Position numbers and translations under genes: made by a program. Of a DNA stretch of 26,649 nt, positions 2,272-26,423 are shown in pieces. Origin of the DNA: Candidatus Heimdallarchaeota archaeon (GTDB lineage: Archaea > Asgardarchaeota > Heimdallarchaeia > Heimdallarchaeales > Kariarchaeaceae); the NCBI GenBank assembly GCA_015523565.1, contig WAKA01000099.1:1-26649 (forward strand). The letters run 5' to 3'. The notes beneath the pieces are model-generated. The model searched no databases. It was not told where the DNA came from and saw only the letters and a program-made list of their open reading frames with translations. How positions within the stretch are numbered: position 1 is the stretch's first letter; the number at the start of each line of letters is the position of its first letter.

Positions 2272-2276
2272 TCACA

Positions 2277-3428: not shown

Positions 3429-3429
3429 A

Positions 3430-3520
3430 GTTTCACCCTTTGGTAAATCTGTGCCGGAAAGTAAAAATCCGTTTCCGACAACCTAGTATCAAGTAAAGCT
3501 ACTTTTTTTTAAATCTTGAT
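3430..3520 (-). promoter_or_regulatory. Putative promoter and leader of the thiolase-DUF35 operon, with inverted repeats
   Basis: Minus-strand TTTAAAA TATA-like box (~3507-3513) flanked by the inverted repeat ATCAAG (3488-3493)/CTTGAT (3515-3520). A second inverted repeat, CGGAAA (3455-3460)/TTTCCG (3472-3477), lies in the leader. Confidence 0.35.
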
Positions 3521-3556
3521 CTATCAACAATATCTTTTTGAAAACTTTGCACAGTT

Positions 3557-4762: not shown

Positions 4763-4929
4763 AAATGTTTTTTTTGGAAAATCTTTGTTTTATTTATGAA
4801 AAGAGGGTTTCCTTCATCAGAATTTTACCAATGCCATTAATCTTGTCATAATTGGTTTTATGACTTGTCCTTTCACAAGAAAAAAGGAAAAGCAAAAATG
4901 TTTTAATTTATTTATTGGTATTCTATCCA

Positions 4930-5709: not shown

Positions 5710-5715
5710 AAGATA

Positions 5716-6333
5716 ATGTCCACATATTACATAGGTGTAGTGGCTATGAATTCAATAAATAGCTACATTTCCACCTTAGTTGCATTGGGAAAGTTAATTG
5801 AAAATTTTAGTGATGCAGAAAGGCTGAATGATTTAAGAAATAATTTACAGGAAATAAGTGAAGTGCCTATTGCAAGACAGGTTTTGCATCAGCTTGCATT
5901 GATTGGGAAGGAAATGATGAACAATGAAAATCAAATCCTGTTTCATTTGTTTAACTCTCCTTCATATTGCCATTTGGAATTGGATGAGGATACTGTTGAA
6001 TATTTGAAAAGCATGATATTTCATGGAATGCAAGAAGCTGTTTCTCCTGCCTTGGCATTACAATCAATAGGGATGTTTTATCTCAATGGAAACATGGATT
6101 TAATTCATCAAATTTACCTTTCTTACGCAATCAATGCCATGCTTAACAATTTCAGGACATTCAGGCAAAGGGTCGAAAGTTGTTATCATTTTGCAAATCA
6201 GGTCATTGTTTCCAATTTGTTTGATTTAGCCATTGAATTGCTTTCAATAGTCAAACAAGAAATGAACGGTGATAAAAATGAATTAAACATGCCATTCCTT
6301 AAAAAATCAGAAAATTCAATTGGTTGGACATGA
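5716..6333 (+). CDS. Hypothetical protein, predicted mostly alpha-helical
   Basis: 205-codon ORF packed 6 bp after the previous gene. No recognisable motif. The start could be the second Met (MNSINS). Confidence 0.6.
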   Translation: MSTYYIGVVAMNSINSYISTLVALGKLIENFSDAERLNDLRNNLQEISEVPIARQVLHQLALIGKEMMNNENQILFHLFNSPSYCHLELDEDTVEYLKSMIFHGMQEAVSPALALQSIGMFYLNGNMDLIHQIYLSYAINAMLNNFRTFRQRVESCYHFANQVIVSNLFDLAIELLSIVKQEMNGDKNELNMPFLKKSENSIGWT

Positions 6334-6342
6334 AGATATTTA

Positions 6343-7305
6343 ATGAAGCCAATGCATGGTAACCTAATGGGAATGAATAGTAATGTGCCCATCAAAGGCG
6401 AATTCAAGGTTCCAATGGAAAAAGGGATGAAAATTTTTACTAGAACCGTTTCATGTCCACACAATGATATCATTAATCTACAAGTAATTCTTGTCCATCC
6501 ATTTCCATTCTCATCTGAAATCTATTCTGGATTTTATGAATCATCATTAGTGAAAGAATTTTTGGAAATGGAATGCAATAAAGGGAACCATGTCAGGTTT
6601 TTGTTCCCGGATTTGCCTGGTTTCGGTCAGACATTGCCAATCACTGCTAATCCAAAAGACTTGGGAGGTTATGTTGATATCATTCATGCTCTTGCAGAAA
6701 ATTTGCCGCTGGTGATAGGGGGATGTTCAATGGGAGGTTACGTTGCTTTGGAGTATGTGTCACATTATGAAACCGAGGGATTGATTTTGATTGATACTCA
6801 CCCCTATGAAGATCCCTTGGAAAAACGCGATGCAAGGATAAGACAAGCCGGCCAATTTGAAAAAGTGTTGAAATCTGGACTCGGATTGAACAATGCAGAC
6901 TTAAGGATTCTTTCATTGAAAATGCCGATGTTTGCAGAATTCCTTCACAACCTAAGGAAACAGCTAGTTACTGAATCCAATTCTGAAATTGGCATGAAAG
7001 CATTGGAATTGATGCAAAAACAAAGTTTAGTTGGAATTATCAGTGCCTTGAGGGCAATGGCGGGAAGGAAAAGCAATGTTAATACACTTAAGGAATATGA
7101 AAAGCCAGTTCTGATTGTGGTGGGTGAAAAAGACAAAATCACACCTGTTGAAATGGCACAAAAAATGTCTGAACTTAATTCAAATCATTCCACAATGAAA
7201 ATAATAGCTGATTCAGGTCATTTGCCAATGCTGGAAAAGGTACAGGATTTTAACAAGACAATTATTGATTGGCTCGAAAAAGTTCTTGAAAATATGGTGA
7301 AATGA
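6343..7305 (+). CDS. Alpha/beta hydrolase (esterase/lactonase-like)
   Basis: HPFP oxyanion region, PDLPGFG, nucleophile elbow GCSMGG, acid in GEKD and His in SGH. The true start may be a later Met, e.g. 6427 (MKIFTR). Confidence 0.9.
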   Translation: MKPMHGNLMGMNSNVPIKGEFKVPMEKGMKIFTRTVSCPHNDIINLQVILVHPFPFSSEIYSGFYESSLVKEFLEMECNKGNHVRFLFPDLPGFGQTLPITANPKDLGGYVDIIHALAENLPLVIGGCSMGGYVALEYVSHYETEGLILIDTHPYEDPLEKRDARIRQAGQFEKVLKSGLGLNNADLRILSLKMPMFAEFLHNLRKQLVTESNSEIGMKALELMQKQSLVGIISALRAMAGRKSNVNTLKEYEKPVLIVVGEKDKITPVEMAQKMSELNSNHSTMKIIADSGHLPMLEKVQDFNKTIIDWLEKVLENMVK

Positions 7306-7354
7306 GATGAAAATAAACAACTGTTTTTTAGACCGTATTGTATGTAAACGTTGA

Positions 7355-8056
7355 ATGCGAGAACCTCATGTAATTGTGGACAATATAACAAAGACCTATG
7401 ATCTGGGTGAATCTAAGGTTGAGGCTTTAAAATCTGTATCTTTGTCTGTGGAAAAGGGAGAGTTCCTGATTGTTATGGGACCATCAGGTTCTGGCAAATC
7501 GACTCTTGTAAATATGATTGGTGGAATCGACAAACCAACAACAGGAAAAGTAAAAATAAATTCAACAAATGGGTCATTGGATTTACAGGGATTGAAGGAC
7601 AAGGATTTGACAAAATACCGCCGAAATCTAGTGGGATTTGTGTTTCAATTCTACAGTTTGGTTCCCACATTGACAGCTTTGGAAAATGTTGAAATGATTG
7701 GTGAACTTGTCAATATTCCTCGATCAGTTCTGAAAAAGAGAAGCATGCAATTGCTTGACGAAGTAGGATTGAAGGGAAGATATGGCTCATTTCCCTCCCA
7801 ATTGTCAGGTGGGGAAAGGCAAAGAGTCGCATTGGCACGTGCATTGGTTAAGCATCCTGAAATCCTGATTGTTGATGAACCGACTGGTCAACTGGATGAG
7901 GAGACAGGTGTTAAGATGGTTCAACTTATCAAAGACACAGCTAAGAAATATGGAAGCACAGTAGTCATGGTAACACATGACGGGAACTTGAAAAAGTTTG
8001 GAGACAGAATTATCTATCTGTCTTCTGGAAAGATCATTAAAGAGGAGGGGCAGTGA
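7355..8056 (+). CDS. ABC transporter ATP-binding protein, LolD/MacB family
   Basis: Walker A GPSGSGKST, GFVFQFY Q-loop, LSGGERQRV, DEPTGQLD and VTHD. Confidence 0.95.
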   Translation: MREPHVIVDNITKTYDLGESKVEALKSVSLSVEKGEFLIVMGPSGSGKSTLVNMIGGIDKPTTGKVKINSTNGSLDLQGLKDKDLTKYRRNLVGFVFQFYSLVPTLTALENVEMIGELVNIPRSVLKKRSMQLLDEVGLKGRYGSFPSQLSGGERQRVALARALVKHPEILIVDEPTGQLDEETGVKMVQLIKDTAKKYGSTVVMVTHDGNLKKFGDRIIYLSSGKIIKEEGQ

Positions 8057-8057
8057 A

Positions 8058-10463
8058 ATGAAAAAGATTTACAAATCATCACTAAGGGACCTCTATTTTC
8101 ACAAGATACGGTCATTTGTCATTGTATTTTCCATCGTAATGGTAATTTCTTTTTCCCTAGCCCTTAACAGCCTAACAATAAATTTGGAAAAGACAATGAA
8201 TGCGGAGCAAAGCAAATATAAATTGGCACATGTAAATTTTCTTTTTTCTGAACTTGTTGATCCATCAGTCAACGAAACCATCTACAACTCCATCAAGGAA
8301 TCAATTGGACGAGAACCGACTGCATCATTTGCCAGATTGTATGTCAATTCAAAATACCAAATGCCAAACAAGGAATGGATTAAAAATGTGATCATTTCTA
8401 TAGATGACAGGACTCCTGAACCCATCAACCAAATGGTCATAGATGAAGGCAGAAAACCTGTTGCCCCTGATGAGATATTATTGCTTACTTCTTTTGCAAA
8501 AGCGGCGGAAGTTCAAGTTGGTGACGAAATAAAAATGTTCGGAAAAAATGGGACTGTCACGTATAAGGTGGTTGGACTTGGCAGATCAATTGAATTCTCC
8601 TCTTTCAATATAGCCCAAACTGGTGTTATGTTTGCAACAGACAAGGGGGCATTAAGATATCTGGGTTTACCGTTGTCTTTTCAAAAAAGGAATAGTTTTG
8701 TCTATTATATCGATGAGAAAATAACACTAGATGAAGAAAAGGCAATGGTCAAAAAAGTTGAGCAGGATGTGAAGGATGATGGATATGCACCCATTGCATT
8801 TAGTTGGTTGATGAGGGAGGTCAGCTATCGTAAAAGCCTGAATGATGCATTAAAAATCACATCAAAGTACATGGCCGTTTCCACCATTTTCATATTCATG
8901 ATTGCGGGAGTTGTCATTTTTGTAGTCACCAATAGGTATGTAAATGACCAAAAGATTGTGATCGGTGCAATTTATTCTTTCGGAACGACGAAAAGGGAGA
9001 TACTTGCCTCATTCATTCTTAGATTGACCATCCTGTTCGTTATAGGCAGTTTTTTTGGTCATTTATTTGGCAGATTGTTGCTGAGAAACATAATAGATAC
9101 AATGGTACGGGAATGGGGATTGTTTGATTCACAGGCAAATGTCCCATTTGAAACTGCATTGTGGGTCACTTTAGGAGCATATCTGGTATTGATTTTCTTT
9201 AATTTCCTTGCACTTTGGAATATCTTTCGGATGACACCCTATGAAGCCATGCGTGGGAAATCCACCGAGTTGGTAAGTACTGGATTATTGATAAGGGTGT
9301 CCAAAATATTGCCGTTCAAGACTTTAAGAATGGCTTGGCGGAATCTTACACGCAACAGGACTAGATCCGCGCTTACAATAATCAGTTTCACAATTTCAAT
9401 AATATTTGCAACATCCATTCTTTTAACCCATTCAAGTGTCTTTATCAACTTGGACAATTATTTTGATACGAGTGTCCACGTGGACATCATTGCTGATGTT
9501 GGATTTCAGGACCCTACTGGGGCAGTTATTGACAATTTAAGTAAGATGCCTGAAATAGTTGAAGTTGAGCCGTATATAGAGATGTTGGCACAATTCAAGG
9601 ATCATCCTGAATACGTTGCATACTTGCGTGGTGTAGAATACAATACATCAATGTTTGACTTTGAACTGCTTGATGGTCGAGTTTTCTCTGAGGGAAGCAA
9701 TGAAGTCGTAATTTCTAAATTTGTCAAGGCAAACTATGGATTTGATATTGGAGATACAATTCCAATTGTCTTCTTTGGAGAAAACATCAACTTTACAGTG
9801 GTCGGTGTTCAAAAGGACATGTTCACCACTGCCTCAATAGTGTTTGATTTGGATTATCTTCCTAAGGTGATAAAAGATAGAACCACAGGGATTCCCTTGG
9901 AAAAATTTGGTCTGAAAATCTACAGCAATCTGCTTATCAAGACTAATGGGGATGTTGATGCTGTTGTCGACAACCTCAATCGAAACCATCCAGATATTGA
10001 AAACGCGATTTCAATCAATGTACGGCATAAATTGGTTCGTCAATTGATTGGGTCGCAAACCATCGTCATTTTTGTTCTTGTTTTCCTTGCTCTTTCTGTT
10101 GGTGCAATGACCGTTTTTACCACGCAGTTCATATCTTTGATTGAGAGAGATCGAGAATTCAGTATCCTGAGAATTTTTGGAATATTCAACAGGGAAATCC
10201 TGTATGGTGTAATGATGGAGGGATTAATCATTGTAACAATTGCCTTGACATTGGCTCTCGTCTTGAGTCGGGAGGTTGCCAATCGCATTTGGATACCGTT
10301 GGTCAACGATACCCTTCTATCAATAAAATTATTCGAAGACAATTTTATTTATATGGTCTCAGTAATCTTTAGTTTGGTCACAGTTGTTCTCTCCACACTT
10401 GTCAGTTTCAATGAATCTGTGAAAATCAAACCTTCTGAAGCAATTCGGTTTGAATTTCTATAA
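8058..10463 (+). CDS. ABC transporter permease, FtsX/MacB-like, duplicated (two extracytoplasmic domains, 2 x 4 TM)
   Basis: Two TM + large loop + 3TM halves, with RNLTRNRTRSALT, ERDREFSILRIFG and KPSEAIRFE motifs. ATG 8058 lies 1 bp after the ATPase stop and follows GGAGGGG, so it is preferred over 7998. Confidence 0.9.
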   Translation: MKKIYKSSLRDLYFHKIRSFVIVFSIVMVISFSLALNSLTINLEKTMNAEQSKYKLAHVNFLFSELVDPSVNETIYNSIKESIGREPTASFARLYVNSKYQMPNKEWIKNVIISIDDRTPEPINQMVIDEGRKPVAPDEILLLTSFAKAAEVQVGDEIKMFGKNGTVTYKVVGLGRSIEFSSFNIAQTGVMFATDKGALRYLGLPLSFQKRNSFVYYIDEKITLDEEKAMVKKVEQDVKDDGYAPIAFSWLMREVSYRKSLNDALKITSKYMAVSTIFIFMIAGVVIFVVTNRYVNDQKIVIGAIYSFGTTKREILASFILRLTILFVIGSFFGHLFGRLLLRNIIDTMVREWGLFDSQANVPFETALWVTLGAYLVLIFFNFLALWNIFRMTPYEAMRGKSTELVSTGLLIRVSKILPFKTLRMAWRNLTRNRTRSALTIISFTISIIFATSILLTHSSVFINLDNYFDTSVHVDIIADVGFQDPTGAVIDNLSKMPEIVEVEPYIEMLAQFKDHPEYVAYLRGVEYNTSMFDFELLDGRVFSEGSNEVVISKFVKANYGFDIGDTIPIVFFGENINFTVVGVQKDMFTTASIVFDLDYLPKVIKDRTTGIPLEKFGLKIYSNLLIKTNGDVDAVVDNLNRNHPDIENAISINVRHKLVRQLIGSQTIVIFVLVFLALSVGAMTVFTTQFISLIERDREFSILRIFGIFNREILYGVMMEGLIIVTIALTLALVLSREVANRIWIPLVNDTLLSIKLFEDNFIYMVSVIFSLVTVVLSTLVSFNESVKIKPSEAIRFEFL

Positions 10464-14447: not shown

Positions 14448-15950
14448 TTGATCGGAGATAAATTGAGTGCGGAACCAATTACTTTACAATCTGGTATGTG
14501 GGATGCATTTCTCATCATGTTTTTTTTAGGAATGAACTTTTTCTTTGTTGCTTCGGAATTTGCATTTGTCAGGGTTCGAGTAACACATATGACCACCTTA
14601 GCCAATCAAGGGTCTAAGCGAGCCAAAAGAGTACTTGATATCATCCATGATTTGGATAGGTCAATGTCTAGTACGCAACTAGGGATTTCTTTTGCATCTC
14701 TTGGTATTGGATTCATTGCTGAAAAGTTCTTTACAGGTATTTTGATATCCCTTATGTACCTATTGGGGGTAAATCTTGATTTGATTTCAAATATCGAGGG
14801 ATTCGGTTTTGTAATAGGTTATTTTCTTGGAACCTATTTGCATGTAGTTGTTGGTGAATTAGTGCCTAAATCAATTGCCATTAGATTTGCTGAGAAAACT
14901 GCATTGTTCTGTGCTGAACCTTTGTATTGGTTCATGAAAACCACAAATTGGTTCCTTTATCTGTTGATAGTCTCTTCAAATCTGGTGTTGCGGCTTGTTG
15001 GAATCCCTCCTGCTCAAGAAACATTTGGAGAAGTCTATTCTGAAGATGAACTGAAGCTTATAATTGAAAACAGCATTGAGGGTGGAGAATTAGAGGAATA
15101 TGAATCCAAATTGATATACAATATCTTTGAATTCACTGATACCACTGCCAAAGAAATCCTGACACCAAGACATGAAGTAGCGGCATTACCAGATACGGCT
15201 AAAATCCATGAGGTCATTGAGCTTGCAAAAAAGACAGGACATAGTCGTTTCCCTGTTTATCACGAAGAATTGGATGACATTATTGGTTTCATTCATATTA
15301 AGGATGCACTGATTTACTATGAAATGGGAAATGGCACTAAGGAGCATACCGTAAGTGAACATCTGAGACCTGTAATCACTGTTCACGAAGGCTATCCAAT
15401 AGATGACCTCCTAAAGGACATGCAAAAACAGCAGACACAAGTTGCTGTAATTGTTGATGAATATGGGAATTTGCAGGGAATAATCACTATTGAAGACATA
15501 TTGGAGGCAATTGTCGGTCCAATAAAAGATGAATTTGACAGCCTTGAAAAACAAGATGAGGAAACTACCGACGATGAGGGAATTGTTGTTGCAGGAACAA
15601 TTCCAATTGATGAATTCAATGATTTGCTCAAAAAATATAATATCAAGACAGAAATCCATCCAAAAAGTGATGTGGTTACTCTTGCGGGGTATATTCTTGA
15701 AAAACTTGAATCCAAAATTCCCAAGAAAGGGCAAGTGATTGATGATGGAAATCTATTCTTCAAAATACTGGAGATGGATAAAAACAGAATTGAAAAGGTT
15801 GAAGTCAGTGACCACCTAATCATGGCCAAACATAATTTAAATCCTAAACAAAATGAAAATAACAATGGGAACATAAAACAAAAGAATAATGAATTAAACC
15901 AAAAGAATAACGAAACCCAAGAACAGGAAAAATTGCAGGAGAATATGTGA
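14448..15950 (+). CDS. CorB/CNNM ('hemolysin family', TlyC-like) divalent cation transporter: DUF21 + CBS pair + CorC_HlyC
   Basis: FFVASEFA, QLGI, GELVPK, HSRFPVY, VDEYG, TIEDILEAIVGPIKDE and TLAGYI motifs. The start may be ATG 14496 rather than TTG 14448. Confidence 0.93.
   Translation: MIGDKLSAEPITLQSGMWDAFLIMFFLGMNFFFVASEFAFVRVRVTHMTTLANQGSKRAKRVLDIIHDLDRSMSSTQLGISFASLGIGFIAEKFFTGILISLMYLLGVNLDLISNIEGFGFVIGYFLGTYLHVVVGELVPKSIAIRFAEKTALFCAEPLYWFMKTTNWFLYLLIVSSNLVLRLVGIPPAQETFGEVYSEDELKLIIENSIEGGELEEYESKLIYNIFEFTDTTAKEILTPRHEVAALPDTAKIHEVIELAKKTGHSRFPVYHEELDDIIGFIHIKDALIYYEMGNGTKEHTVSEHLRPVITVHEGYPIDDLLKDMQKQQTQVAVIVDEYGNLQGIITIEDILEAIVGPIKDEFDSLEKQDEETTDDEGIVVAGTIPIDEFNDLLKKYNIKTEIHPKSDVVTLAGYILEKLESKIPKKGQVIDDGNLFFKILEMDKNRIEKVEVSDHLIMAKHNLNPKQNENNNGNIKQKNNELNQKNNETQEQEKLQENM
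15879..15914 (+). repeat. Short intragenic repeat with 21-bp period in the N/Q/K-rich tail of the CorB-like gene
   Basis: CAAAAGAATAATGAA (15879-15893) and CAAAAGAATAACGAA (15900-15914), encoding QKNNE twice. Confidence 0.6.
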
Positions 15951-15952
15951 AT

Positions 15953-17419
15953 TCATTCAACTGTATCCTTGAATGTGGGAGAATGCCTCATTTTTAATGT
16001 ATGTTCCATTTTATTTGCAATTGCCAACAACTTTTTCTCAGAAAATGGCAATCCCATGAAAGTACCGCCTACAGGTAGCCCCTGAACTAAGCCAATAGGT
16101 ATTGTGATTGCTGGAAAACCTGTAGTGGCGCTAAGAAATGTGGCACTGCCACTGGAGCAATCCCCATTCACTATGTCTATTAGCCATGCAGGACTGCCCG
16201 TTGGAAGAAAAATTGCATCTAATTTATTTTGAGAAAATACATTTTCTACATTGTCCCTAAGAAGTTGATAACTCTTCATTGCTTTCTGATAAATCTCAGA
16301 CTTGAATCCCTCAGTTTCCAGAGAAAGTTCAAGCCATTCCTGCCCAAAATATGGCATTACCTTGTCCGCATGTTTCCTGTTGAATTCAATCAAGTCCTCT
16401 ATGGAATTTATCCCTATTTTGGGATCCACTGATTTCAAATATTTGTTGAGGTCTATTTTATAATCAGTCAATAGTACATCCAACTCATGCAATCCATCTT
16501 CAGGTATTTTGATCTCTATGCTGTCAATTAATTTCCAACCAATCTCCTCCATTTTACGAATTGTATTTTCAACAATTGTCTTGACTTTTGGAGGAACTTC
16601 ATGGAATTGTTTTGGAATACCTACCTTTACCTCCTCTACATCAACCAGATGAAAATTTGAAAAGTCAATTTCTTTGTCTCTGCATCTTTCTGTAATTGGA
16701 TCAGTTTCATCATACCCTGCAATGGATTCAAGTGCAATTGCAGCATCTTTAACTGTCCTTGAAATTGGACCTGCTATATCTTGTGTATGCGAAATGGGAA
16801 TTATTCCTGATCTGCTTACAAGTCCCATTGTGGGTTTAATCCCTACAACTCCATTTATGTGCGATGGACATAGGATCGATCCATCAGTTTCGGTTCCAAT
16901 GGCAACAGTGCAAAAATCTGAAGAAACAGCAACAGCAGATCCTGAGCTTGATCCACATGGAGTCCTGTCCAATGCATACGGATTTCTTGTTTGTCCGCCT
17001 CGGGATGACCATCCACTAATGGATTTCTTTCCTCTGAAATTTGCCCACTCACTTAAGTTTGCCTTTCCCAAAATGATTGCCCCTGCTTGACGTAATTTCT
17101 TGACAATAAACGCATCCTTTTGGGGATGATGATTCTTTAATGCCAATGACCCCGCAGAAGTAACCATTTTATCTGCTGTGTCGATATTGTCCTTGACGAC
17201 TATTGGTATACCCTCCAAAAGCCGGAAAGGTTCTCCTTTCCTAATGCGTTTGTCTATCTCTTTTGCAATTTCAACTGCATCAGGATTTAATTCAATTATT
17301 GCATTGACTTTTCTGTCCAATTCATTAATCCTTTCCAAAAAATAATTTACCAGTTTTTCTGCTGTCAATTGATTTGTCTTGAACAATTGGTGGATTTGAC
17401 TGATTGAAAGTTCATCCAT
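15953..17419 (-). CDS. Amidase signature family enzyme (peptide amidase-like)
   Basis: GIPIVVKDNID (catalytic Lys), GKANLSEWANF, GSSSGS and GTETDGSI; the Ser-cisSer-Lys triad is intact. Confidence 0.95.
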   Translation of the reverse strand: MDELSISQIHQLFKTNQLTAEKLVNYFLERINELDRKVNAIIELNPDAVEIAKEIDKRIRKGEPFRLLEGIPIVVKDNIDTADKMVTSAGSLALKNHHPQKDAFIVKKLRQAGAIILGKANLSEWANFRGKKSISGWSSRGGQTRNPYALDRTPCGSSSGSAVAVSSDFCTVAIGTETDGSILCPSHINGVVGIKPTMGLVSRSGIIPISHTQDIAGPISRTVKDAAIALESIAGYDETDPITERCRDKEIDFSNFHLVDVEEVKVGIPKQFHEVPPKVKTIVENTIRKMEEIGWKLIDSIEIKIPEDGLHELDVLLTDYKIDLNKYLKSVDPKIGINSIEDLIEFNRKHADKVMPYFGQEWLELSLETEGFKSEIYQKAMKSYQLLRDNVENVFSQNKLDAIFLPTGSPAWLIDIVNGDCSSGSATFLSATTGFPAITIPIGLVQGLPVGGTFMGLPFSEKKLLAIANKMEHTLKMRHSPTFKDTVE

Positions 17420-17547
17420 GTTTACTTTACGTTATAATCATATATCTGCATTTTTCCAAAACGAATTGTTGAAACTTAAAAAAAAATATTTCCCAATGCA
17501 TTTTTATTTATTTGTTCTATTTTTTCAATAGGAATATGGTAAATTCA

Positions 17548-17572
17548 ATAACGTTTTAAATATAACGTTGAA
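17548..17572 (+). promoter_or_regulatory. Archaeal TATA-like box flanked by repeated ATAACGTT motifs
   Basis: TTTAAATA (17555-17562) lies ~20-28 nt upstream of ATG 17583, consistent with a leaderless transcript. ATAACGTT occurs at 17548-17555 and 17562-17569. Confidence 0.5.
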
Positions 17573-17582
17573 AATATGAGAA

Positions 17583-18773
17583 ATGGATAAATTTTTTGTT
17601 CTTACCATGTTCAACCTACTTTTATTTATTGTTATAATTACAGTATACTTTATGAATTATTTGAAATTCAAACAAAATTTTTTTAGATTCCCATTGACTG
17701 GATATATTTTTATCAACATTTGGGCTTTTGCCACTGTTCTTTCGAATATTTATAGCGAGTTTGTATTACCTATATTCTCATTTTCCGTATTTTCAGGCAT
17801 TGTTGGGGTTCTTTTCATTTTTAGTCCTGAATGGCTCTTTATTTACCCAAAAAGAATTAAAATTGTATGGCAGATTTTTTGGCATTATTCATTCATAATT
17901 TTGGGAATAGTTTTGACTCAAACCATTTATCCACAATTGGATCTCATCATCAACAGATCCCAAACAGGGAATGCACATCAAACAATATTTCTAATCCTAG
18001 ATATCTGGGTTGCACTGGTTTTCTATCTTTTTTTAAAAACACATCGGATTGCGGATATGTCTAACAAATTTTGGAAATTATTGAACTACACAAGATATGC
18101 AGGAATTTTTGCAGTGGGGTTAATTGTTTTCTTTCAAACCACCAAATATCCCAATATGGAATTGTCTATGCTTTTTGTTGCAATTGGATCCATTATTCTT
18201 GCATTTTCGACTTTTGCTTATTTTATGGGAATTTATCTGTATCCCTCTGGCTTGTTGATACATTTATTCCAACTAAAAATTTTGCTCAAGGAAAAGAAAA
18301 TCAATTATGCTCTTTATAGTTATGAGACAATCGGTCCAAGCCTCATTTTCCATTATGGATTTGATTTTTTTGAACAGAAGGATTTTGAAGAGGAAATGCT
18401 GAATTTAGGCATAACTGGAATGGTATTGTTGGGAAATGGTGAAGATTATATTGAAAGTACCATTATTCTTCCTATTGAAAATGAAGAATATATTGGCATT
18501 GGAATTTCTTTTTGGGGAAAAGACCCAAGTCAAAAGGATATGAGGTTTAAGGGGCGAACTTTCTTTTTGCTCCTTTTTGCTTTTTCCAATGAATTGGAAT
18601 GGATCGTTTATAAGAGGAAAGTATGGCAGCAAGCAGTAAGGTCTTACGTAAGCAAATTAGAGAATGCAAAAGAGGAATTGACTCCTGAAAGGGTAGAAGG
18701 TATTATTCATACGGTCATTCATTCCATATTTTTGGACAATCGCTATATCATTGACACCTATATTCCAATTTGA
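17583..18773 (+). CDS. Membrane protein with ~7 N-terminal TM helices and a C-terminal soluble longin/uDENN-like domain
   Basis: Seven hydrophobic segments in aa 1-230. From aa ~240 the pattern is beta-beta-alpha-beta-beta-beta-alpha: YALYSYETIGP...helix...IILP...IGIGISFWGKD....DMRFKGRTFFLLLF...helix. The ORF is solid; the domain call is by eye. Confidence 0.6.
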   Translation: MDKFFVLTMFNLLLFIVIITVYFMNYLKFKQNFFRFPLTGYIFINIWAFATVLSNIYSEFVLPIFSFSVFSGIVGVLFIFSPEWLFIYPKRIKIVWQIFWHYSFIILGIVLTQTIYPQLDLIINRSQTGNAHQTIFLILDIWVALVFYLFLKTHRIADMSNKFWKLLNYTRYAGIFAVGLIVFFQTTKYPNMELSMLFVAIGSIILAFSTFAYFMGIYLYPSGLLIHLFQLKILLKEKKINYALYSYETIGPSLIFHYGFDFFEQKDFEEEMLNLGITGMVLLGNGEDYIESTIILPIENEEYIGIGISFWGKDPSQKDMRFKGRTFFLLLFAFSNELEWIVYKRKVWQQAVRSYVSKLENAKEELTPERVEGIIHTVIHSIFLDNRYIIDTYIPI

Positions 18774-18958
18774 TACAAATACTAAATACTTAAATAGGTT
18801 GAATGGAAAGTTAAAATTGCCAAAGATGATTACGGGGTATTACGTTCTACAAAAGCAATAGTAAAATCGACCCATCCCAAATATTTTTGAAAAGTCATAA
18901 TTTTGGCCGATTTGATTTGGAACATGGATGGATTCTGTGTTCTTTGAACAAATTTTCT

Positions 18959-18966
18959 AAGGAGGT
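18959..18966 (+). promoter_or_regulatory. Shine-Dalgarno site of leuS
   Basis: AAGGAGGT, 8 nt upstream of the TTG start at 18975. Confidence 0.7.
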
Positions 18967-18974
18967 AAACAATT

Positions 18975-21842
18975 TTGAATAGACAGCTTGAAATTGAAAA
19001 GAAATGGCAGTCCAAATGGAATGAGGCCCATCTGTTCGAAAGGGATCGGATAGACGGGATGCCAAAGTTTTTCGGGAATTTTCCCTTTCCATACATCAAT
19101 GGGAAGCTTCACTTGGGACATGGTTATAGCATGATGAAATTGGAAGCTACAATTCGTTACCAATTGATGAAGGGCAAGAATATCTTGTGGCCTTTTGGTT
19201 TCCATGCCACAGGTGAACCTATTGTTGGAATGGCAAAAAGGGTTGCAGAAGGAGACAGTAATCAAATTCGTGCTTTGGAACTGTCAGGCATTCCTAAAGA
19301 AAAAATGGAAGAATTCAAGGATCCATATAACATTGTCAGGTATTTTATGAAAACCACAGAAGATACCTGCCGAAATCTTGGTGTGGCTGTTGATTGGAGG
19401 AGAAAGTTTGTTACAACGCAATTGACGCCTACATTTTCCAAGTTCATTGAATGGCAGTACCGGAAGCTTCATAGTATGGGCTACGTAGTTCAGGCTTCAC
19501 ATCCCGTGATATATTGTCCAAGCTGTAAATCTCCTACAGGAGAGCACGACAGGTTGGAAGGTGATGATGCCAGGATTGTTGATTTTGTCCTCCTTTATTT
19601 CTATGTGCCTGATGTAGATGCTTACCTTGTACCTGCCACTTTGAGACCTGAAACGGTATTTGGTGTGACAAACATATTTCTGCATCCCGATGCGACTTAT
19701 GTTGTTGCCAATGTGGATGGGAAGAAGGTAATCGTCAGTGAATCAACTGCTGTAAAATTCAAGGAGCAAGAACACGAAGTCACCGATATTGCTCCAATAG
19801 ACTTGAAAGAATTGTTTGGTAAATATGCCATCAACCCAATGACAGAAGAAAAGGTCATAATAATTCCAGGAACATTCATAGATCCAGATGGTGCCACTGG
19901 TGTCGTCATGTCTGTCCCTGCACATGCTCCTGTGGATTATGCCACCCTGATGGAGTTGAAGGAAAATCCTGAATTGGTTGAAAAATATGGGATTGACCAT
20001 GAGGAAATTAAAAAGATTGAACCAATCTCTTTAATTGAAATTCAAGGCTTCAGTGAATTCCCTGCAAAGGATGTCGTTGAGGAAATGGGAATTCGGGGAC
20101 AGAAAGACCCCAAATTGAAGGATGCGACAAAACTTGTATACAGAAAAGAAGCCATGCATGGTGTGACCAAGGCAATTACAGGGAAATATCAAGGCAAATC
20201 TGTAGAAGAAGTCAAAGATTTGCTTGTCAAAGATATGCTTGAAGAACACAAGGCCATGATCCTTAAAGAACCTAGTGAAATTGTAGTCTGTAGATGTGGT
20301 ACCAGAAATTATGTGAAATTCTTGGAAAATCAATGGTTCCTTAAGTTCAGTGATCCGGAATGGAAGGCAAAAGTCTACAAAATGATAGACAAAATGACTT
20401 TCTATCCACCAGAGGCAAAAAATGCATTCATTAGAACAGTTGACTGGGTTGAAAACCGGGCTTGTGTCCGCCAAAGTGGTTTGGGCACTCCTGCCCCATG
20501 GGATCCTGAATGGATCATTGAAACCCTTTCTGACAGTGTCATTTACATGGCATACTATATTGTCTCAAAGTATGTCAATGAAGGTTCTTTCAAGGAAGAA
20601 TGGGCTATCGATCCTATTTTCGACTATATTTATCTGGGGAAAGGCAATGCAAGAAAACTTTCAAAGGAACATGGAATTCCCGAAAAATTGCTCAAAGACA
20701 TCAAAAAGGACTTCCAATATTGGTATGGGTTCGATTTGAGATCTTCTGGAAAAGATTTGGTGAACAACCATTTGACCTTCATGCTTTTCCATCATGCGGC
20801 AATATTCCCTGAAAAATATTGGCCGAAAGCCATTCATGTCAATGGTTATGTCAATGTTGCAAAGAAGACTGCGGACAATAAAATTATAGAGGAGAAGATG
20901 TCCAAACGAAAAGGCAATTTCAAGACCTTGGATGATCTTTTGGAGACATTTGGTGCTGACATAACCAGGATCACTTTGTTGACCGCGGGAGAAGGAATGG
21001 AAGATGCGGCCATCATGCCCGATGAAATTCCAAGCTATTCAAAATGGCTCAATACTTTGATGTCTATGGCTGAAGAAACGGACATTGACGATGAGATGCA
21101 ACAAATCGATCGTTGGCTTATTTCCAAAATGCAGGATCAAATACAGAAAACAATAGACAACTATGAAAACATCAGGACAAGAAGCGCGTTCCAATCAGCA
21201 TACCATGAAACCTTGCATTTGATTAAATGGTATACCAATAGAAGAAATGGAACTAAGGGACCTGGATTCAAATATGCAAGGGAAGTCATTATCAAGATGA
21301 TTGCCCCCATGTTGCCCCACTTGGCAGAGGAAATTTGGGAAATGTGGGGGAGAAAAGGTTTCATAGCAACATCTCATTTCCCACATGTGGAAAAGGATAA
21401 AATTGACTTGGATGCTGAATATGGTGAAAAATATCTTGGTGAAGTTGTTGACGATTTGAAAAACCTGATCTCATTCTTGACATCCAGAGGTAATGACCCA
21501 CCTTCTGAAATAGTTCTTTATGTCTCCCCTCAGTGGAAGTACAAAATTTATGAAGAGGCAAGAACAAATGGTACAAAGACCCTGCTGAAAAATATCATGC
21601 AGGATCCAGAGATCAAGTCCAAAGGGAAAGCGGCTGTCTCTTACGCACAATCCCTTATGAAGAAAGGGGCACCTCCAGATATTCCCATCTCCTATGAAAC
21701 CGAAATGAAAGTCCTCGAAGAAGCCATTCCTTTCATTGAAAAACAATTTAACGCCAAAGTTGCCGTGAAGCCCGCTGAAGGTGCAGACCATCCAAAGGCA
21801 AAAGTAGCAGTTCCAAGAAGACCTGGCATTGTTTTGAATTAG
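18975..21842 (+). CDS. leuS: Leucine--tRNA ligase, archaeal/eukaryotic type
   Basis: FPFPYINGKLHLGH (HIGH motif), GFHATG, DWRRKF, editing-domain motifs ATLRPET and TGVVMSVPAHAPVD, LSDSVIYMAYY, SGKDL..NHL, KMSKR, and the archaeal C-terminal AVPRRPGI. Confidence 0.98.
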   Translation: MNRQLEIEKKWQSKWNEAHLFERDRIDGMPKFFGNFPFPYINGKLHLGHGYSMMKLEATIRYQLMKGKNILWPFGFHATGEPIVGMAKRVAEGDSNQIRALELSGIPKEKMEEFKDPYNIVRYFMKTTEDTCRNLGVAVDWRRKFVTTQLTPTFSKFIEWQYRKLHSMGYVVQASHPVIYCPSCKSPTGEHDRLEGDDARIVDFVLLYFYVPDVDAYLVPATLRPETVFGVTNIFLHPDATYVVANVDGKKVIVSESTAVKFKEQEHEVTDIAPIDLKELFGKYAINPMTEEKVIIIPGTFIDPDGATGVVMSVPAHAPVDYATLMELKENPELVEKYGIDHEEIKKIEPISLIEIQGFSEFPAKDVVEEMGIRGQKDPKLKDATKLVYRKEAMHGVTKAITGKYQGKSVEEVKDLLVKDMLEEHKAMILKEPSEIVVCRCGTRNYVKFLENQWFLKFSDPEWKAKVYKMIDKMTFYPPEAKNAFIRTVDWVENRACVRQSGLGTPAPWDPEWIIETLSDSVIYMAYYIVSKYVNEGSFKEEWAIDPIFDYIYLGKGNARKLSKEHGIPEKLLKDIKKDFQYWYGFDLRSSGKDLVNNHLTFMLFHHAAIFPEKYWPKAIHVNGYVNVAKKTADNKIIEEKMSKRKGNFKTLDDLLETFGADITRITLLTAGEGMEDAAIMPDEIPSYSKWLNTLMSMAEETDIDDEMQQIDRWLISKMQDQIQKTIDNYENIRTRSAFQSAYHETLHLIKWYTNRRNGTKGPGFKYAREVIIKMIAPMLPHLAEEIWEMWGRKGFIATSHFPHVEKDKIDLDAEYGEKYLGEVVDDLKNLISFLTSRGNDPPSEIVLYVSPQWKYKIYEEARTNGTKTLLKNIMQDPEIKSKGKAAVSYAQSLMKKGAPPDIPISYETEMKVLEEAIPFIEKQFNAKVAVKPAEGADHPKAKVAVPRRPGIVLN

Positions 21843-21849
21843 AATCTTT

Positions 21850-22680
21850 TTATGATCCGTCAATCATTGACATGGGCAATACAAATGTAAAGTTTGAATT
21901 CTCAATTATATAAGCTTCCAAGAATTCATCATATTTCTTCCTGTGGAAAGATTCCCTTATCACTCCAAGCTCAAACATCAATTCATGTAATAAATCAATT
22001 GGTAGGTCATAATCCTCATGACCAGGAAACAGCCTTCCTTTTTCCATGAAATGCTCAACCTTATCATAAAGTTCTTCCAATAATTCTATGTAATCCTCAA
22101 AATAAACATTTTCAGGATAGAAAAAAGCACCAAAATGAAATGTGTCACCTGTGAATATTTCTCCTTCAGAGGAAACCAATACAATTGATCCTTGGGTATG
22201 ACCATTTGCATGGAAGACAGAGAGATCAATTCCTCCCAAATCAAATTTTTCACCCCCTATCAATGGAATGACTTGATCATTGACAGGGATTTTGAAATTC
22301 ATTTCCTTATAGAAATGAGCTCCAATTGAATCTTTAAGAAATGATACGTCAATTGGTTTTGAAATGCCTTTGTAATCCAATTTATGGATATGAACCTCAG
22401 GAAACTCACTGTTGCCCCCCACATGGTCAAAATGGTTGTGTGTATTGAACACAAGCAAATCCCTTTCTCCCAAATATTTCTTTATCGTAGGAAGGATAGG
22501 TTTTACTCCAGCGCCAGTGTCAATTAATGCCGCCTTTTCAGTTCCGATTAGCAGGTACATGTTTGTATAGACTGTTCTAAATTTCGGCTCGATCTTATCC
22601 AATCTTTCTCTGATGATATATAGGTGGTCATTTATCTGCTTGACCTCAAACCATTCCATAATTAATTTAGTTGCGTTCAC
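21850..22680 (-). CDS. Metallo-beta-lactamase fold hydrolase
   Basis: LIDTG, THNHFDHVGG (HxHxDH), GHTQG, FTGD and PGH motifs. The start may be ATG 22659. Confidence 0.92.
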   Translation of the reverse strand: MNATKLIMEWFEVKQINDHLYIIRERLDKIEPKFRTVYTNMYLLIGTEKAALIDTGAGVKPILPTIKKYLGERDLLVFNTHNHFDHVGGNSEFPEVHIHKLDYKGISKPIDVSFLKDSIGAHFYKEMNFKIPVNDQVIPLIGGEKFDLGGIDLSVFHANGHTQGSIVLVSSEGEIFTGDTFHFGAFFYPENVYFEDYIELLEELYDKVEHFMEKGRLFPGHEDYDLPIDLLHELMFELGVIRESFHRKKYDEFLEAYIIENSNFTFVLPMSMIDGS

Positions 22681-22699
22681 TTATAGAATATTTGTTTAG

Positions 22700-24013
22700 T
22701 TATTTTATCCAAGGCTTTTCTCTGGCATATTCTTCTGCAAGCCTAAATTGTTTGGAAAGATCAATATGAAATTGCCTATTGTCGACAACTGGTTTACCGT
22801 CAACTAAAACATATGAAACATCCCTTTTCGTTGCCGTATAAACAATATATGAAAACTCATTATACATGGGATAGGCATTTGGATATACTGGATCAAGTAT
22901 TACAATGTCCGCTTTCTTGCCAGGCTGGATACTTCCGATTTCATCTTCCATCCCCAAAGCCCTTGCCCCTTCAAGTGTTGCCAAATGGAAAACTGATCTT
23001 GCATCCATGACCTTTGGATCATGGGTAACTGCCTTTTGATAATATGACGCCAACTTCATCTCAAGGAACATGTCATGACCGCCTGTTGCAGGAGAACCGT
23101 CTGTTGCAAGACCGACTGGAATTTGCTTTTGAACAAATTTTGGCACCGGTGCAATTCCTGAGGCAAGCTTGCCATTTGAAGAGGGATTATGTGAGATTGT
23201 TGTACCTGTTTCCTTGATGATTTCAATTTCAGCATCAGAAACCCAGACACAATGCGCAAGGATTGTCTTGTCCCCCAAAATTCCCAAATCTTGGTAAGCC
23301 TTTATGTACTCATTTCCTGTTGATTTTCTAACCTCCTCACATTCTGAAATGTTTTCAGCGGCATGGGTATGAAACAGCAATCCTCTTTTGTTCGATTCCT
23401 CTTTTGCCCTTTGCATCAACTCATTTGAGCATGTCAGCAGAAATCTTGGGGTATATGCAAATTGAACCCGTTTCCCTTTCGGATATCTGTCTGCGAGTTG
23501 GTTCGCCTCTTTGATTGCCTTGTCTGTGCTTTCAATCAATCCTTCAATGGTATTCCTGTCCATGAGCATCTTTCCCACATTGCCACGGATGCCTGAATCA
23601 ATTGCCGCTTTTATTGTCTGTTCAGCATGCCTTACCGTTGCCATGTCATTTGTTGTTGTAATCCCCCCAAAAAGCATCTCTGCATAACCGATTAAGGAGG
23701 ATGTATAAACTTGTCCTGCATTGATGCTGGCCTCCCCTGGCAAAATCACTTGGTTCAACCAATCCAATAGCTCCAGATCGTCACCTGCACCTCGAAATAG
23801 AGTTTGTACCGCATGCGAATGTGTATTTACAAACCCTGGAATTACAATGGAATTTTTGTTGCCTATGACTGGATAATCAAACTCTTTCTTGATTTGCTCA
23901 AACAATCCAATTTTCTTGATTGTTCCTTGTTCAATAACAAGGGCATGTTCTTTCCCAACAGGTGAAAATGCATCCCTAATGATACGACCTCGAACAATTA
24001 ATCCCTGTGACAC
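22700..24013 (-). CDS. Amidohydrolase of the MtaD/DadD-like nucleoside deaminase group
   Basis: PGFVNTHSH, HTHAAE, AHCVW, HNPSSN.KLASG, ATDG and GSIQPGKKAD motifs. The exact substrate cannot be determined from sequence. Confidence 0.9.
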   Translation of the reverse strand: MSQGLIVRGRIIRDAFSPVGKEHALVIEQGTIKKIGLFEQIKKEFDYPVIGNKNSIVIPGFVNTHSHAVQTLFRGAGDDLELLDWLNQVILPGEASINAGQVYTSSLIGYAEMLFGGITTTNDMATVRHAEQTIKAAIDSGIRGNVGKMLMDRNTIEGLIESTDKAIKEANQLADRYPKGKRVQFAYTPRFLLTCSNELMQRAKEESNKRGLLFHTHAAENISECEEVRKSTGNEYIKAYQDLGILGDKTILAHCVWVSDAEIEIIKETGTTISHNPSSNGKLASGIAPVPKFVQKQIPVGLATDGSPATGGHDMFLEMKLASYYQKAVTHDPKVMDARSVFHLATLEGARALGMEDEIGSIQPGKKADIVILDPVYPNAYPMYNEFSYIVYTATKRDVSYVLVDGKPVVDNRQFHIDLSKQFRLAEEYAREKPWIK

Positions 24014-24142: not shown

Positions 24143-24634
24143 ATGAAAATCCTACCTATTGTAGCTGGATTGATCGTCTTATTTGCACCAATTGTTTTTT
24201 CTGTATCGACATTGGGAAACAACGAAACAACAACCATTCTCGGATCATTTTACATCTCCACCAAATCAAATGTGTTTGGAATTGAAAGTTCAAGCCAAGA
24301 GACTTTAAATTCCGATTGGTTCAAGGACAATGGTCTTTATGACACATATTATGGAAGTTACGTTCTTTTCTATTATTTCAGCTTGTTAATGGCGGCTATT
24401 GCAATTTTCATTGGATTACGGACAAAAGGTAAGCAAAGCGGCAAACCCGCGGCATTGGTTTCCCTGCTCAGTGGATTGACATTGTTGGCAATCCGCTACC
24501 TGATGCTTTCAGATGCCAATAGTTCGTTTTATGAGAAAAAAGAGATACTAGGCATACAAACCTCTTACTTGGAAATTCCTGTAGCAGCACTGTTTGCCAT
24601 ACTTCTAGGCATTTTCGGATTGATAAAGGATTAA
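24143..24634 (+). CDS. Hypothetical membrane protein with four hydrophobic segments
   Basis: 163 aa: hydrophobic N-terminus, ~50-aa polar loop, helical hairpin, ~25-aa loop and a C-terminal helix. Its stop codon overlaps the convergent gene's stop within TTAA (24631-24634). Confidence 0.7.
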   Translation: MKILPIVAGLIVLFAPIVFSVSTLGNNETTTILGSFYISTKSNVFGIESSSQETLNSDWFKDNGLYDTYYGSYVLFYYFSLLMAAIAIFIGLRTKGKQSGKPAALVSLLSGLTLLAIRYLMLSDANSSFYEKKEILGIQTSYLEIPVAALFAILLGIFGLIKD

Positions 24635-25101
24635 TAATACAATATTACGACCAGAAATGTCATCCATGCCAAAAAAAGAACCAAGGGAAATACTCGCTTG
24701 AATAAAGAATCATTTTTCTCCCTTTGCCTGATTTCTTGCTGTTCCTGTTCTATCACTTGTTTATACACTTTCTTCTTTTTTCTCCAAAATAAGCGCTTAT
24801 TCTTTTTCTTTGCGATTTCCTCCAGTTTGGCCAAATCATTCTTGAAATTTGTTACTATATGATTATACAATTGTGTCATTTCCTCTGCCTCTTCCTGCGT
24901 TCGAGGGGCAAGCTCTGCAAGAATTCTTGAAGGCATCTCACTTCTGCACACAGGACAAAATGGTTGCATGAACAGCCAAGCGGCAAAATGATCCTTGTGG
25001 TATTCTGACTCACAAAAAGGACATTTGTATGGTTTCTCTTGGAGGGGTCCAAAGCAGATTTTACAGGTAATGTTAGCCACATAATGTTTTTTCCACCACA
25101 C
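24631..25101 (-). CDS. RING-finger protein (putative E3 ubiquitin ligase) with coiled/basic linker and C-terminal tail anchor
   Basis: CKIC-x10-CPFC-x4-HKDH-x3-W-x6-CPVC gives 8 metal ligands plus the conserved RING Trp and Pro. The protein ends in VFPLVLFLAWMTFLVVILYY-stop. GTG start. Confidence 0.8.
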   Translation of the reverse strand: MWWKKHYVANITCKICFGPLQEKPYKCPFCESEYHKDHFAAWLFMQPFCPVCRSEMPSRILAELAPRTQEEAEEMTQLYNHIVTNFKNDLAKLEEIAKKKNKRLFWRKKKKVYKQVIEQEQQEIRQREKNDSLFKRVFPLVLFLAWMTFLVVILYY

Positions 25102-25181
25102 TTTTTATATCTGTCTTAATTCCCTTCAAATTTTGATTTTTATGGGAAAAGCTCTTAACTTTTTTCTAAACAAAACAAATA

Positions 25182-26423
25182 ATGAATTCCGAAACTTTTC
25201 TTTATCCTTTTGCAATTGTGGTTACATTTGTATTTATTACCATTGGCATAAAAGGCAGTTCCCCTCTTGCAGTAATTTTCTATTTAATCTGCGGTTTTCT
25301 GCTGGCGGTATGGTATATCTCTTTGGGATTGCTTCATAAAGACCAATTCACAAAAATACTTCATAAGATTTCAGTTTCAAATCCACTGAAATTTGGAGTT
25401 CCTGCATTGGTTTTTATGATCGTTGTTTTCACAGAATTACTTTTGGGGGGCTCTTGGAATATTGGAAAATTGCTTGGGTTGGCAATCTATCTTTACTTGC
25501 CAACAATTGCCCTAACCCTAAAGTTTCGAGGAAACCTTATCTTTTCGGTATTGGCTGTCTGGTTTCCAATTGAATGGGATTTTCTCGACCAGTTGCTGAG
25601 TAATTTGAGGTTCTTCGTCCTACCAAGTGATGCGTTGTTGGGGATATTCTCTCTTTCTTGGGCAATGCTCACCAATGGTTTTGATCTTCCATGGTACAAT
25701 TGGAACCTTGACAAAGATGATTTGAGATACATAAATATCAGTACTTTAGGAGCAACCATTGCAATTGTCCCTCTGGGAATTCTGCTTAAATTCTTGACTT
25801 GGAATCCCTCAACTCTCCTGTCAAATTCAATTGCCCCAAATCCCGTTCTTACTGCAATTATTGTTTTCATTGGGATTTTTTTCGTTCAAGGAATAATGGA
25901 GGAATACCTTTTTCGTGACATCATTTTTAGGAAATGGTTCGAATTTTTAGAGAAACAAGACAAACGATGGCATTTGGGATCAATTGTCTTTTCTGGTTTG
26001 GTGGTCATATCAATTCCATTTTGGGATGAAGTTCTTGGATTTCTGACAAAAATATTACCGTTTCTAGCTCCTGTCACAGACAAGGTCGGAACACTAGACG
26101 AACCTCTTGGTCAAGCGGAAGGTGCACCAATCCCAGAAATTTCCAGTTGGCCCAATTGGCTTCCTTACTTGATTATAGGATCCTTATTGATTTTTTTGGG
26201 AATTCTTGTCTATTCCAAATTCCCTAATGCAGTCACTGCCGCGTTGATTGCCTCTGCAATCATTTTTGGGTTTGCCCATTTTGAGGACTGGAGATATGTC
26301 ATGTTTGCAAGTTTTGCAGGAGTTGCCTATGGATATGCCTATTACAAAACCAAAAATCTTCTTGCTGCTGCTGCGGTTCATATGGGAGTTGACGCTGTTT
26401 GGGCATTGCTTCTCTCATATTAA
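25182..26423 (+). CDS. CPBP family (type II CAAX protease/Rce1-like) intramembrane glutamic protease
   Basis: Polytopic protein with EEYLFR (EExxxR), FGFAH (FxxxH), AGVAYG and HMGVD (HxxxD/N) motifs. Confidence 0.9.
   Translation: MNSETFLYPFAIVVTFVFITIGIKGSSPLAVIFYLICGFLLAVWYISLGLLHKDQFTKILHKISVSNPLKFGVPALVFMIVVFTELLLGGSWNIGKLLGLAIYLYLPTIALTLKFRGNLIFSVLAVWFPIEWDFLDQLLSNLRFFVLPSDALLGIFSLSWAMLTNGFDLPWYNWNLDKDDLRYINISTLGATIAIVPLGILLKFLTWNPSTLLSNSIAPNPVLTAIIVFIGIFFVQGIMEEYLFRDIIFRKWFEFLEKQDKRWHLGSIVFSGLVVISIPFWDEVLGFLTKILPFLAPVTDKVGTLDEPLGQAEGAPIPEISSWPNWLPYLIIGSLLIFLGILVYSKFPNAVTAALIASAIIFGFAHFEDWRYVMFASFAGVAYGYAYYKTKNLLAAAAVHMGVDAVWALLLSY

Follow-up and report, generated by a model that had tools for sequence, protein, structure and literature searches.

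The window is the whole stretch of DNA that was analysed, 26,649 nucleotides of contig WAKA01000099.1 from a Candidatus Heimdallarchaeota assembly (GCA_015523565.1). Towards its far end the minus strand carries a gene for a short protein with a RING finger at the N-terminus, a charged helical stalk in the middle and one transmembrane helix at the very end. The gene, its parts and its two neighbours are listed in Table 1. A preliminary description of this locus had laid out the RING ligands, a charged helix, a polybasic patch and a transmembrane segment running to the stop codon, and all of these are found in the sequence. It had read the protein as a membrane-associated ubiquitin ligase (E3). 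We weigh that reading here against the conservation of the protein, its predicted fold and the content of the genome.

Table 1. The RING gene and its parts, followed by the flanking genes
Feature	Position	Strand	Remarks
Tail-anchored RING gene, probable coding sequence	24631..25080	-	149 aa from GTG 25080; stop 24631-24633
RING finger	24931..25071	-	residues 11-57; ligands span 24946-25065, order C4H2C2
Helical stalk	24694..24930	-	residues 58-136; conserved 'ELxPKTxxE' motif directly behind the RING, followed by long charged helices
Lys/Arg-rich patch	24769..24810	-	residues 98-111, inside the stalk; from sequence
C-terminal transmembrane helix (tail anchor)	24634..24693	-	residues 137-156; from hydropathy
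TATA-like box (ATATAAAA)	25103..25110	-	from sequence; centred ~26 nt upstream of GTG 25080
163-aa open reading frame	24143-24634	+	several hydrophobic segments; no Pfam or NCBIfam match
Rce1-like/CPBP protease	25182-26423	+	413-aa polytopic protein; C-terminal intramembrane glutamic protease domain PF02517, 49 bits

The longest open reading frame (ORF) at this position in the six-frame list is 24631-25101 on the minus strand, 156 residues from a GTG at 25101. Residue numbers follow this reading unless stated, and the numbering of the 149-residue reading is 7 lower (P66 becomes P59). The ORF is a genuine gene and is conserved. Across the 10 members of a core alignment, at 23-56% identity, there is no variation in the eight zinc ligands, the AAWL and CPxCR motifs, a Pro that follows the RING or one stalk Glu. 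Invariant ligands at that level of identity, together with the conserved C-terminal transmembrane helix, are far beyond chance. The GTG at 25080 is more likely the true start than the one at 25101, because the database protein (P0001) is the 149-residue version that starts there, because the N-termini of all homologues lie 2-5 residues ahead of the first Cys, and because of the position of the TATA-like box. That box directly abuts the GTG of the longer ORF, and similar A/T-rich boxes are found at about -22 to -35 in most orthologues. The spacing rule applied to it is general knowledge of archaeal promoters. By that rule the messenger RNA would be leaderless or nearly so and begin at 25080.

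Eight zinc ligands can be assigned by pattern: C13, C16, C27, C30, H35, H38, C49 and C52. Their spacing is C-x2-C-x10-C-x2-C-x4-H-x2-H-x10-C-x2-C, which is the eight-ligand Cys/His spacing of a RING. The order is C4H2C2 and differs from the strict RING-H2 order (C3H2C3, with C-x-H at ligands 3-4). The preliminary description had singled out this order as unusual. The order is as it said, but it does not set the protein apart, since 5 of the 7 other RING loci examined in the genome (L004, L006, L007, L008 and L009) share the pattern CPxC-x4-H-x2-H-x3-W...CPxC and are C4H2C2 as well. One of these, L006 (242 aa), has three N-terminal transmembrane helices. The pattern also occurs in many distant matches that are fused to NfeD-like, Dna2-like or polytopic membrane domains. 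By its sequence pattern, C4H2C2 is the standard RING arrangement of this lineage and resembles the archaeal ligase srfp. A search of the open-access literature for 'C4H2C2' returned only the LSD2 zinc finger and no RING E3, which is weak evidence as the coverage is incomplete.

Profile searches point to the RING-H2 class. Pfam zf-RING_2 (PF13639) matches the window protein end to end at 20.8 bits, against a gathering cut-off of 27.3. It matches all 16 aligned relatives, three of them above the gathering score (P0004 at 32.7, P0016 at 31.5 and P0007 at 28.7). When the family profile is compared with PDB sequences the best match is Arkadia (E 5e-10, 43 bits), and the further matches are RNF165, EL5, RLIM, RNF38, listerin, RNF24, gp78, RNF13, ZNRF3 and HRD1. 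The profile alignment to Arkadia also accounts for the ligand order. C30 falls on RING ligand 3 and the column of the canonical His-4 holds a non-ligand residue. C27 supplies a CxxC knuckle, H35 is ligand 5 and H38 replaces Cys-6. The NCBIfam scan gave no meaningful match, and the ESM Atlas returned only leads below 0.9 (small RINGs of giant viruses, planctomycete Prok-RING_1 and Asgard RING clusters), none of them usable.

The predicted fold agrees with these matches. An AlphaFold2 model of the single chain, built with the family alignment, has a pLDDT of 92, with 92-97 over RING residues 11-57. The preliminary description had proposed structure prediction as the check on a cross-brace RING fold, and a cross-brace RING is what is predicted. 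The RING part superposes on RNF165 (5d0i_B) with Z 7.1 and a root-mean-square deviation of 1.4 Å over 49/51 residues, and Foldseek matches RNF165 with a probability of 1.00 and TMt 0.79. Other fold matches of this part are TRIM37, PCGF5, RNF213, listerin and HRD1 (Z 6.0 for HRD1).

The surface that would face the ubiquitin-conjugating enzyme (E2) is conserved too. Ile15 (two residues after ligand 1; I or V), Trp42, Pro50 (following ligand 7) and Arg53, the linchpin following ligand 8, are conserved in 10/10 core members. Trp42 aligns with the Arkadia Trp in the family profile. The best experimental guide to these positions is srfp of Caldiarchaeum subterraneum, an active E3 of a ubiquitin operon that has been reconstituted (Hennell James et al., PMC5654768). 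In that study the srfp mutants I30Q, W58A and R69A are impaired in ubiquitylation. Ile15, Trp42 and Arg53 would correspond to these essential Ile, Trp and Arg/Lys residues by motif position, srfp itself not being in our alignment. The same paper describes an extra 'C3B' cysteine in srfp, which is the same ligand shift as in the window protein. Both appear to be small archaeal RING-H2-type fingers in which a CxxC knuckle replaces the canonical C-x-H.

There are clear differences from srfp as well. It lies inside an operon with ubiquitin, the activating enzyme (E1) and the E2, whereas the window gene is unlinked to ubiquitin genes, although an srfp-type operon is present elsewhere in the same genome. 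The window protein adds an 80-residue basic helical stalk and a C-terminal transmembrane helix, and its ligand 6 is His. An Asgard cascade of E1, E2 and a Helarchaeial RING E3 has also been reconstituted (bioRxiv 10.1101/2023.07.25.550441). The proteins used in the reconstitutions had been purified from E. coli, and the available portions of these papers mention no tail anchor for them. By sequence, the nearest characterised relatives of the window protein are the archaeal srfp ligases and the eukaryotic RING-H2 domains.

A ligase needs partners, and the preliminary description had suggested a genome search for ubiquitin, E1, E2, ESCRT and Get3-like genes. All are present. The UBC-type E2 profile UQ_con has three matches above cut-off. 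The E2 on contig C204 has the HPN...C active site as well as 'PF' and 'W-T-P-A' loops, and such loops are the RING contacts in UbcH5-type E2s. There are three ThiF-type E1s and two ubiquitin matches above cut-off, with three ubiquitin-fold matches of differing strength overall. A genome lacking E2 and ubiquitin, which the preliminary description had named as fatal to its reading, is not what was found. Two ubiquitin-fold genes, a ThiF E1, a UBC E2 and a RING are clustered on contig C104 at 1344-5495 (L005, L012, L016, L017 and L020). The genome also has two Snf7 (ESCRT-III), two EAP30 (ESCRT-II) and three Cdc48 genes, one single-domain ArsA/Get3-type ATPase (contig C177) and about a dozen RING proteins, several of them membrane-bound.

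Two side observations belong to this inventory. The RING of the C104 cluster is at the C-terminus of a stop-to-stop frame of 388 residues that has several hydrophobic stretches, and this RING has a Glu at the expected ligand 6 (H-x2-E). The operon's own E3 may, on this sequence, also be a membrane protein. On contig C32, at 4587-6511, a partial UQ_con match (UEV-like) lies directly upstream of an EAP30 gene. This arrangement fits the UEV-Vps23/ESCRT clusters described for Asgard archaea.

Behind the RING, the model has helices at residues 58-64, 69-100 and 102-155, the last of which runs into the membrane segment. P66 of the stalk is conserved in at least 90% of alignment A1, and the same Pro (P59 in the 149-residue numbering) is invariant in alignment A2, as is E94. 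A basic cluster occupies the same position in all core homologues. The whole model also matches Prp19, which has a U-box followed by a long oligomerising helix, with a poor deviation that makes this an analogous layout only. By that analogy the stalk probably oligomerises the RING.

Residues 137-156 are the sole hydrophobic segment of the protein. The best 19-residue window is 137-155, with a Kyte-Doolittle value of 2.52, and one residue is left before the stop. A C-terminal transmembrane helix is found in 10/10 orthologues of the same GTDB family, with 0-6 residues after it. Judged by hydropathy and this conservation, the protein is a tail-anchored (type IV) membrane protein, as had been proposed. 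A Pro near the start of the helix and an aromatic residue or Met in its middle recur in most orthologues, which hints at a specific helix-helix contact. The N-terminus should be cytosolic because of the zinc finger and the basic flank.

The family is narrow. A phmmer search of 1.84 billion representatives gave 6 matches at E<=1e-10 and 79 at E<=1e-3, and no full-length eukaryotic homologue was detected in it. The family profile was searched against 400 genomes of the phylum, counting as full-length those matches above 120 bits that cover profile positions 1-140. These are confined to the window's own GTDB family, namely the window genome (G000) and 9/11 others. In the tenth, a contig end truncates the match (117 bits), and the eleventh genome, which is 68% complete, has only a weak one (E 1.3e-13). 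A second family of the same class, Heimdallarchaeia, has full-length matches that are weaker (62-67 bits), and outside those two families only the RING part is matched. NCBI names place the relatives in 'Candidatus Heimdallarchaeota', and 'E3 ubiquitin protein ligase' is the name that two of them already carry. Four relatives (P0009, P0011, P0017 and P0047) have the same N-terminal RING and post-RING motif followed by several C-terminal transmembrane helices. Because these exist, the tail-anchored form is, by sequence, one branch of a wider group that puts the RING first and the membrane last.

We argue that the protein is probably an active, membrane-tethered E3, as predicted from its conserved sequence and modelled fold. 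Zinc binding, E2 binding, ligase activity and the route of insertion are what we infer, and the most direct scenario runs as follows. About 130 N-terminal residues would lie on the cytoplasmic side and carry a two-zinc, cross-braced RING of the archaeal srfp or RING-H2-like type. This RING would dock a ubiquitin-charged UBC-type E2, encoded elsewhere in the genome, through Ile15, Trp42 and Pro50, and the Arg53 linchpin would lock the charged E2 in the closed conformation. Lysines of proteins on or close to the inner membrane face, or the protein's own Lys-rich stalk, would then receive the ubiquitin. The stalk of about 80 residues would space the RING from the bilayer and probably hold several RINGs together. 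The tail helix would presumably be inserted post-translationally by a Get3-type ATPase, a YidC-like insertase or both, because a single C-terminal helix leaves the ribosome only at termination. A role in membrane quality control or ESCRT sorting, as the preliminary description had suggested, is a guess because the gene neighbourhood is not conserved.

It must be said that several points weigh against an active ligase. A RING fold often comes without ligase activity. The window protein itself falls short of the Pfam RING cut-off by the margin given above. The ligand-4 His is absent, with the CxxC knuckle in its place, and ligand 6 is His and not Cys; since these two ligands are non-canonical, the geometry of the zinc sites is assumed. 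No ubiquitin, E1 or E2 gene is linked to the window gene or to its orthologues. The Get3-type gene is weak evidence, as Pfam ArsA_ATPase matches 14/14 control genomes. Finally, the protein evolves fast outside the RING, with 36% identity within one genus.

Some of these points could be taken to mean that the protein is a non-catalytic adaptor, a membrane-tethered RING fold whose finger is a module for interaction with protein, lipid or nucleic acid and brings a partner to the membrane, like the structural RINGs of GATOR2/SEA or of the Nse1 type. The fold matches do include non-ligase or scaffold RINGs (SEA/GATOR2, Nse1 and TFIIH p44), and the stalk, being strongly basic, might be a binding site for anionic lipids or nucleic acid. 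The two non-canonical ligands and the lack of a linked ubiquitin gene would suit an adaptor as well. However, the residues that activate the charged E2 (the hydrophobic residue after the first Cys, the Trp, the Pro and the linchpin Arg) are invariant here, and scaffold RINGs have usually lost them. Every one of the best sequence matches is an active RING-H2 ligase, and the genome has a full set of ubiquitin, E1 and E2. We therefore consider an adaptor unlikely.

A second scenario keeps the enzymology and changes its object. The protein could be an E3-like factor for a ubiquitin-like modifier other than ubiquitin, served by another of the ThiF E1s, or it could be a regulatory decoy, a membrane sink for charged E2 that is its own main substrate and turns over through its Lys-rich stalk. 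In favour of this scenario are the three ThiF-type E1s, the ubiquitin-fold matches of differing strength, the unusually Lys-rich stalk of all members and the fast evolution of the family. Against it, a RING working with a UBC-fold E2 is the only archaeal mode documented (PMC5654768; bioRxiv 10.1101/2023.07.25.550441). We regard this scenario as decidedly improbable.

The finger could also be PHD-like, or another treble-clef reader derived from a C4HC3 finger and unrelated to ubiquitin transfer. The spacing C-x2-C...C-x2-C-x4-H-x2-[C/H] is that of PHD and Prok-RING_1 fingers, the family profile matches the BPTF PHD at E 5e-5, and Pfam PHD matches one of the 16 members (E 0.0033). The N-terminal half of Prok-RING_1 is matched, below threshold, by 11/16 members. 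Yet the PHD reading was rejected because BPTF, the best PHD, scores 26.8 bits against 43 for Arkadia, a deficit of 16 bits. Ligand 6 is His, and the Trp is 7 residues before ligand 7 where a PHD has it 2 before. The second half of the finger (Trp-Leu, five residues, CPxCR) is a RING-H2 signature. No PHD finger is among the matches listed at the top of the Foldseek and VIA rankings.

Membership in Prok-RING_1 (PF14446) was likewise rejected. With the members scanned one by one, the best match is 24.9 bits against a cut-off of 29.1 and covers only profile positions 6-33 of 54. The window protein itself matches at E 0.72, and the best E-value across all 16 members is 4.4e-9. Prok-RING_1 has a C4HC3 configuration (PMC11354881). 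The window protein resembles it in the first half of the finger (C-x2-C ... C-P-x-C-x4-H) and differs in the His at ligand 6 and in the RING-H2-like second half. The preliminary description had allowed for a PHD or other finger lacking an E2 interface; the stronger RING-H2 matches and the conserved E2-facing residues make such a finger very improbable indeed. As for a chance ORF or decaying fragment, the GTG start, the short frame and the 4-nt overlap with the stop of the convergent neighbour might suggest one, but this reading is effectively refuted by the conservation pattern, with intact-frame orthologues in essentially all genomes of the family and ligands invariant in a divergent alignment, and by the confident model.

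If the protein is an active membrane-tethered E3, as we argue, it is worth asking how it relates to eukaryotic ligases. The best sequence and fold matches are eukaryotic RING-H2 E3s (Arkadia/RNF111, RNF165/ARK2C, EL5/ATL, RLIM, RNF38, RNF24, gp78 and HRD1), many of which are membrane ligases. Like the window protein, they have a cross-brace fold, a half that reads 'H-x2-[C/H]-x3-WL-x5-CPxCR', and the residues that bind the E2 or act as linchpin. They differ in being C3H2C3 and not C4H2C2, and in having 2 residues in the loop between ligands 4 and 5 where the window protein has 4. Those bound to membranes have the transmembrane segment before the RING, whereas here the RING is first and the membrane helix last. 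No full-length homology to any of these E3s was found.

The preliminary description had pointed to the layout of RNF5, RNF185 and RNF152. RNF5/RMA1, RNF185 and RNF152 are C3HC4 (RING-HC) proteins in which a linker joins a cytosolic RING at the N-terminus to a membrane anchor at the C-terminus. The likeness is one of layout and, in principle, of an E3 on the cytosolic membrane face. The ligand order differs, and the top matches in Pfam, in the PDB and by fold are all of the RING-H2 class, in a comparison that did not include the RNF5 and RNF152 sequences themselves. Nothing in common beyond a generic RING was detected by sequence, and full-length relatives were seen only in Heimdall-type archaea. 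Kinship is thus not supported, and the shared layout is best read as convergent, an analogy. A further step would be to see the protein as an archaeal, independently evolved counterpart of the eukaryotic membrane-face ligases, marking membrane or membrane-proximal proteins of Heimdallarchaeia with ubiquitin for extraction by Cdc48 and breakdown by the proteasome, or for capture by ESCRT. We think this step doubtful. If it were true, ubiquitin-dependent surveillance of membrane proteins would predate the endomembrane system.

Asgard archaea are the closest known relatives of eukaryotes. To our knowledge, Asgard ubiquitin cascades of E1, E2 and RING have been reconstituted only with soluble, operon-encoded E3s. 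The type of RING ligase is already known, and it is the tail-anchored layout that is the new architecture; no description of a tail-anchored archaeal RING protein was found in the open-access literature, the coverage of which is incomplete. If the protein is a ligase, a simple membrane-face RING of 149 residues, whose cytosolic part is short and soluble, would be easy to work with as a model. It could address whether ubiquitin served at membranes before eukaryotes arose, and it would give the Get3 homologue a defined tail-anchored client of archaeal origin. The significance is limited by the distribution, which is mainly one Heimdallarchaeia family, by the absence of linked partner genes and by the absence of a detectable eukaryotic descendant.

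The 163-aa ORF and the RING gene converge, with 4 nt of overlap at their stop codons. Only in the nearest species (L001/L029) is this ORF kept beside the RING gene, at 53% identity. The CPBP protease gene is divergent and adjoins the RING gene in the window only, where an amidohydrolase is a further neighbour. A PAC2 gene (proteasome assembly chaperone family) takes the place of the protease gene upstream of the RING orthologue in the nearest species, and in that relative only. The absence of a ubiquitin, E1 or E2 gene beside the RING gene, which the preliminary description had pointed out, is borne out by these neighbours: a transmembrane protein, an amidohydrolase and the CPBP protease. None of the genes linked to the RING gene is a ubiquitin, ESCRT or proteasome partner. 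A conserved operon partner was rejected because it is only in the nearest species, whose RING protein is 56% identical, that the 163-aa transmembrane gene and the amidohydrolase are found with the RING gene. Another species of the same genus and the more distant orthologues have unrelated neighbours.

The surrounding chromosome gives no sign of a mobile element. From 14448 to 24013 the window holds a CNNM/CorC transporter, an amidase, leucyl-tRNA synthetase, a metallo-beta-lactamase-fold protein and the amidohydrolase, which is an ordinary chromosomal context. A JGI contig that carries the orthologue P0085 has, at 6943-8665 (L025), two genes in tandem on the opposite strand ~1.5 kb downstream of that orthologue, one for another small zf-RING_2 protein (192 aa) and one for an AAA ATPase (362 aa).

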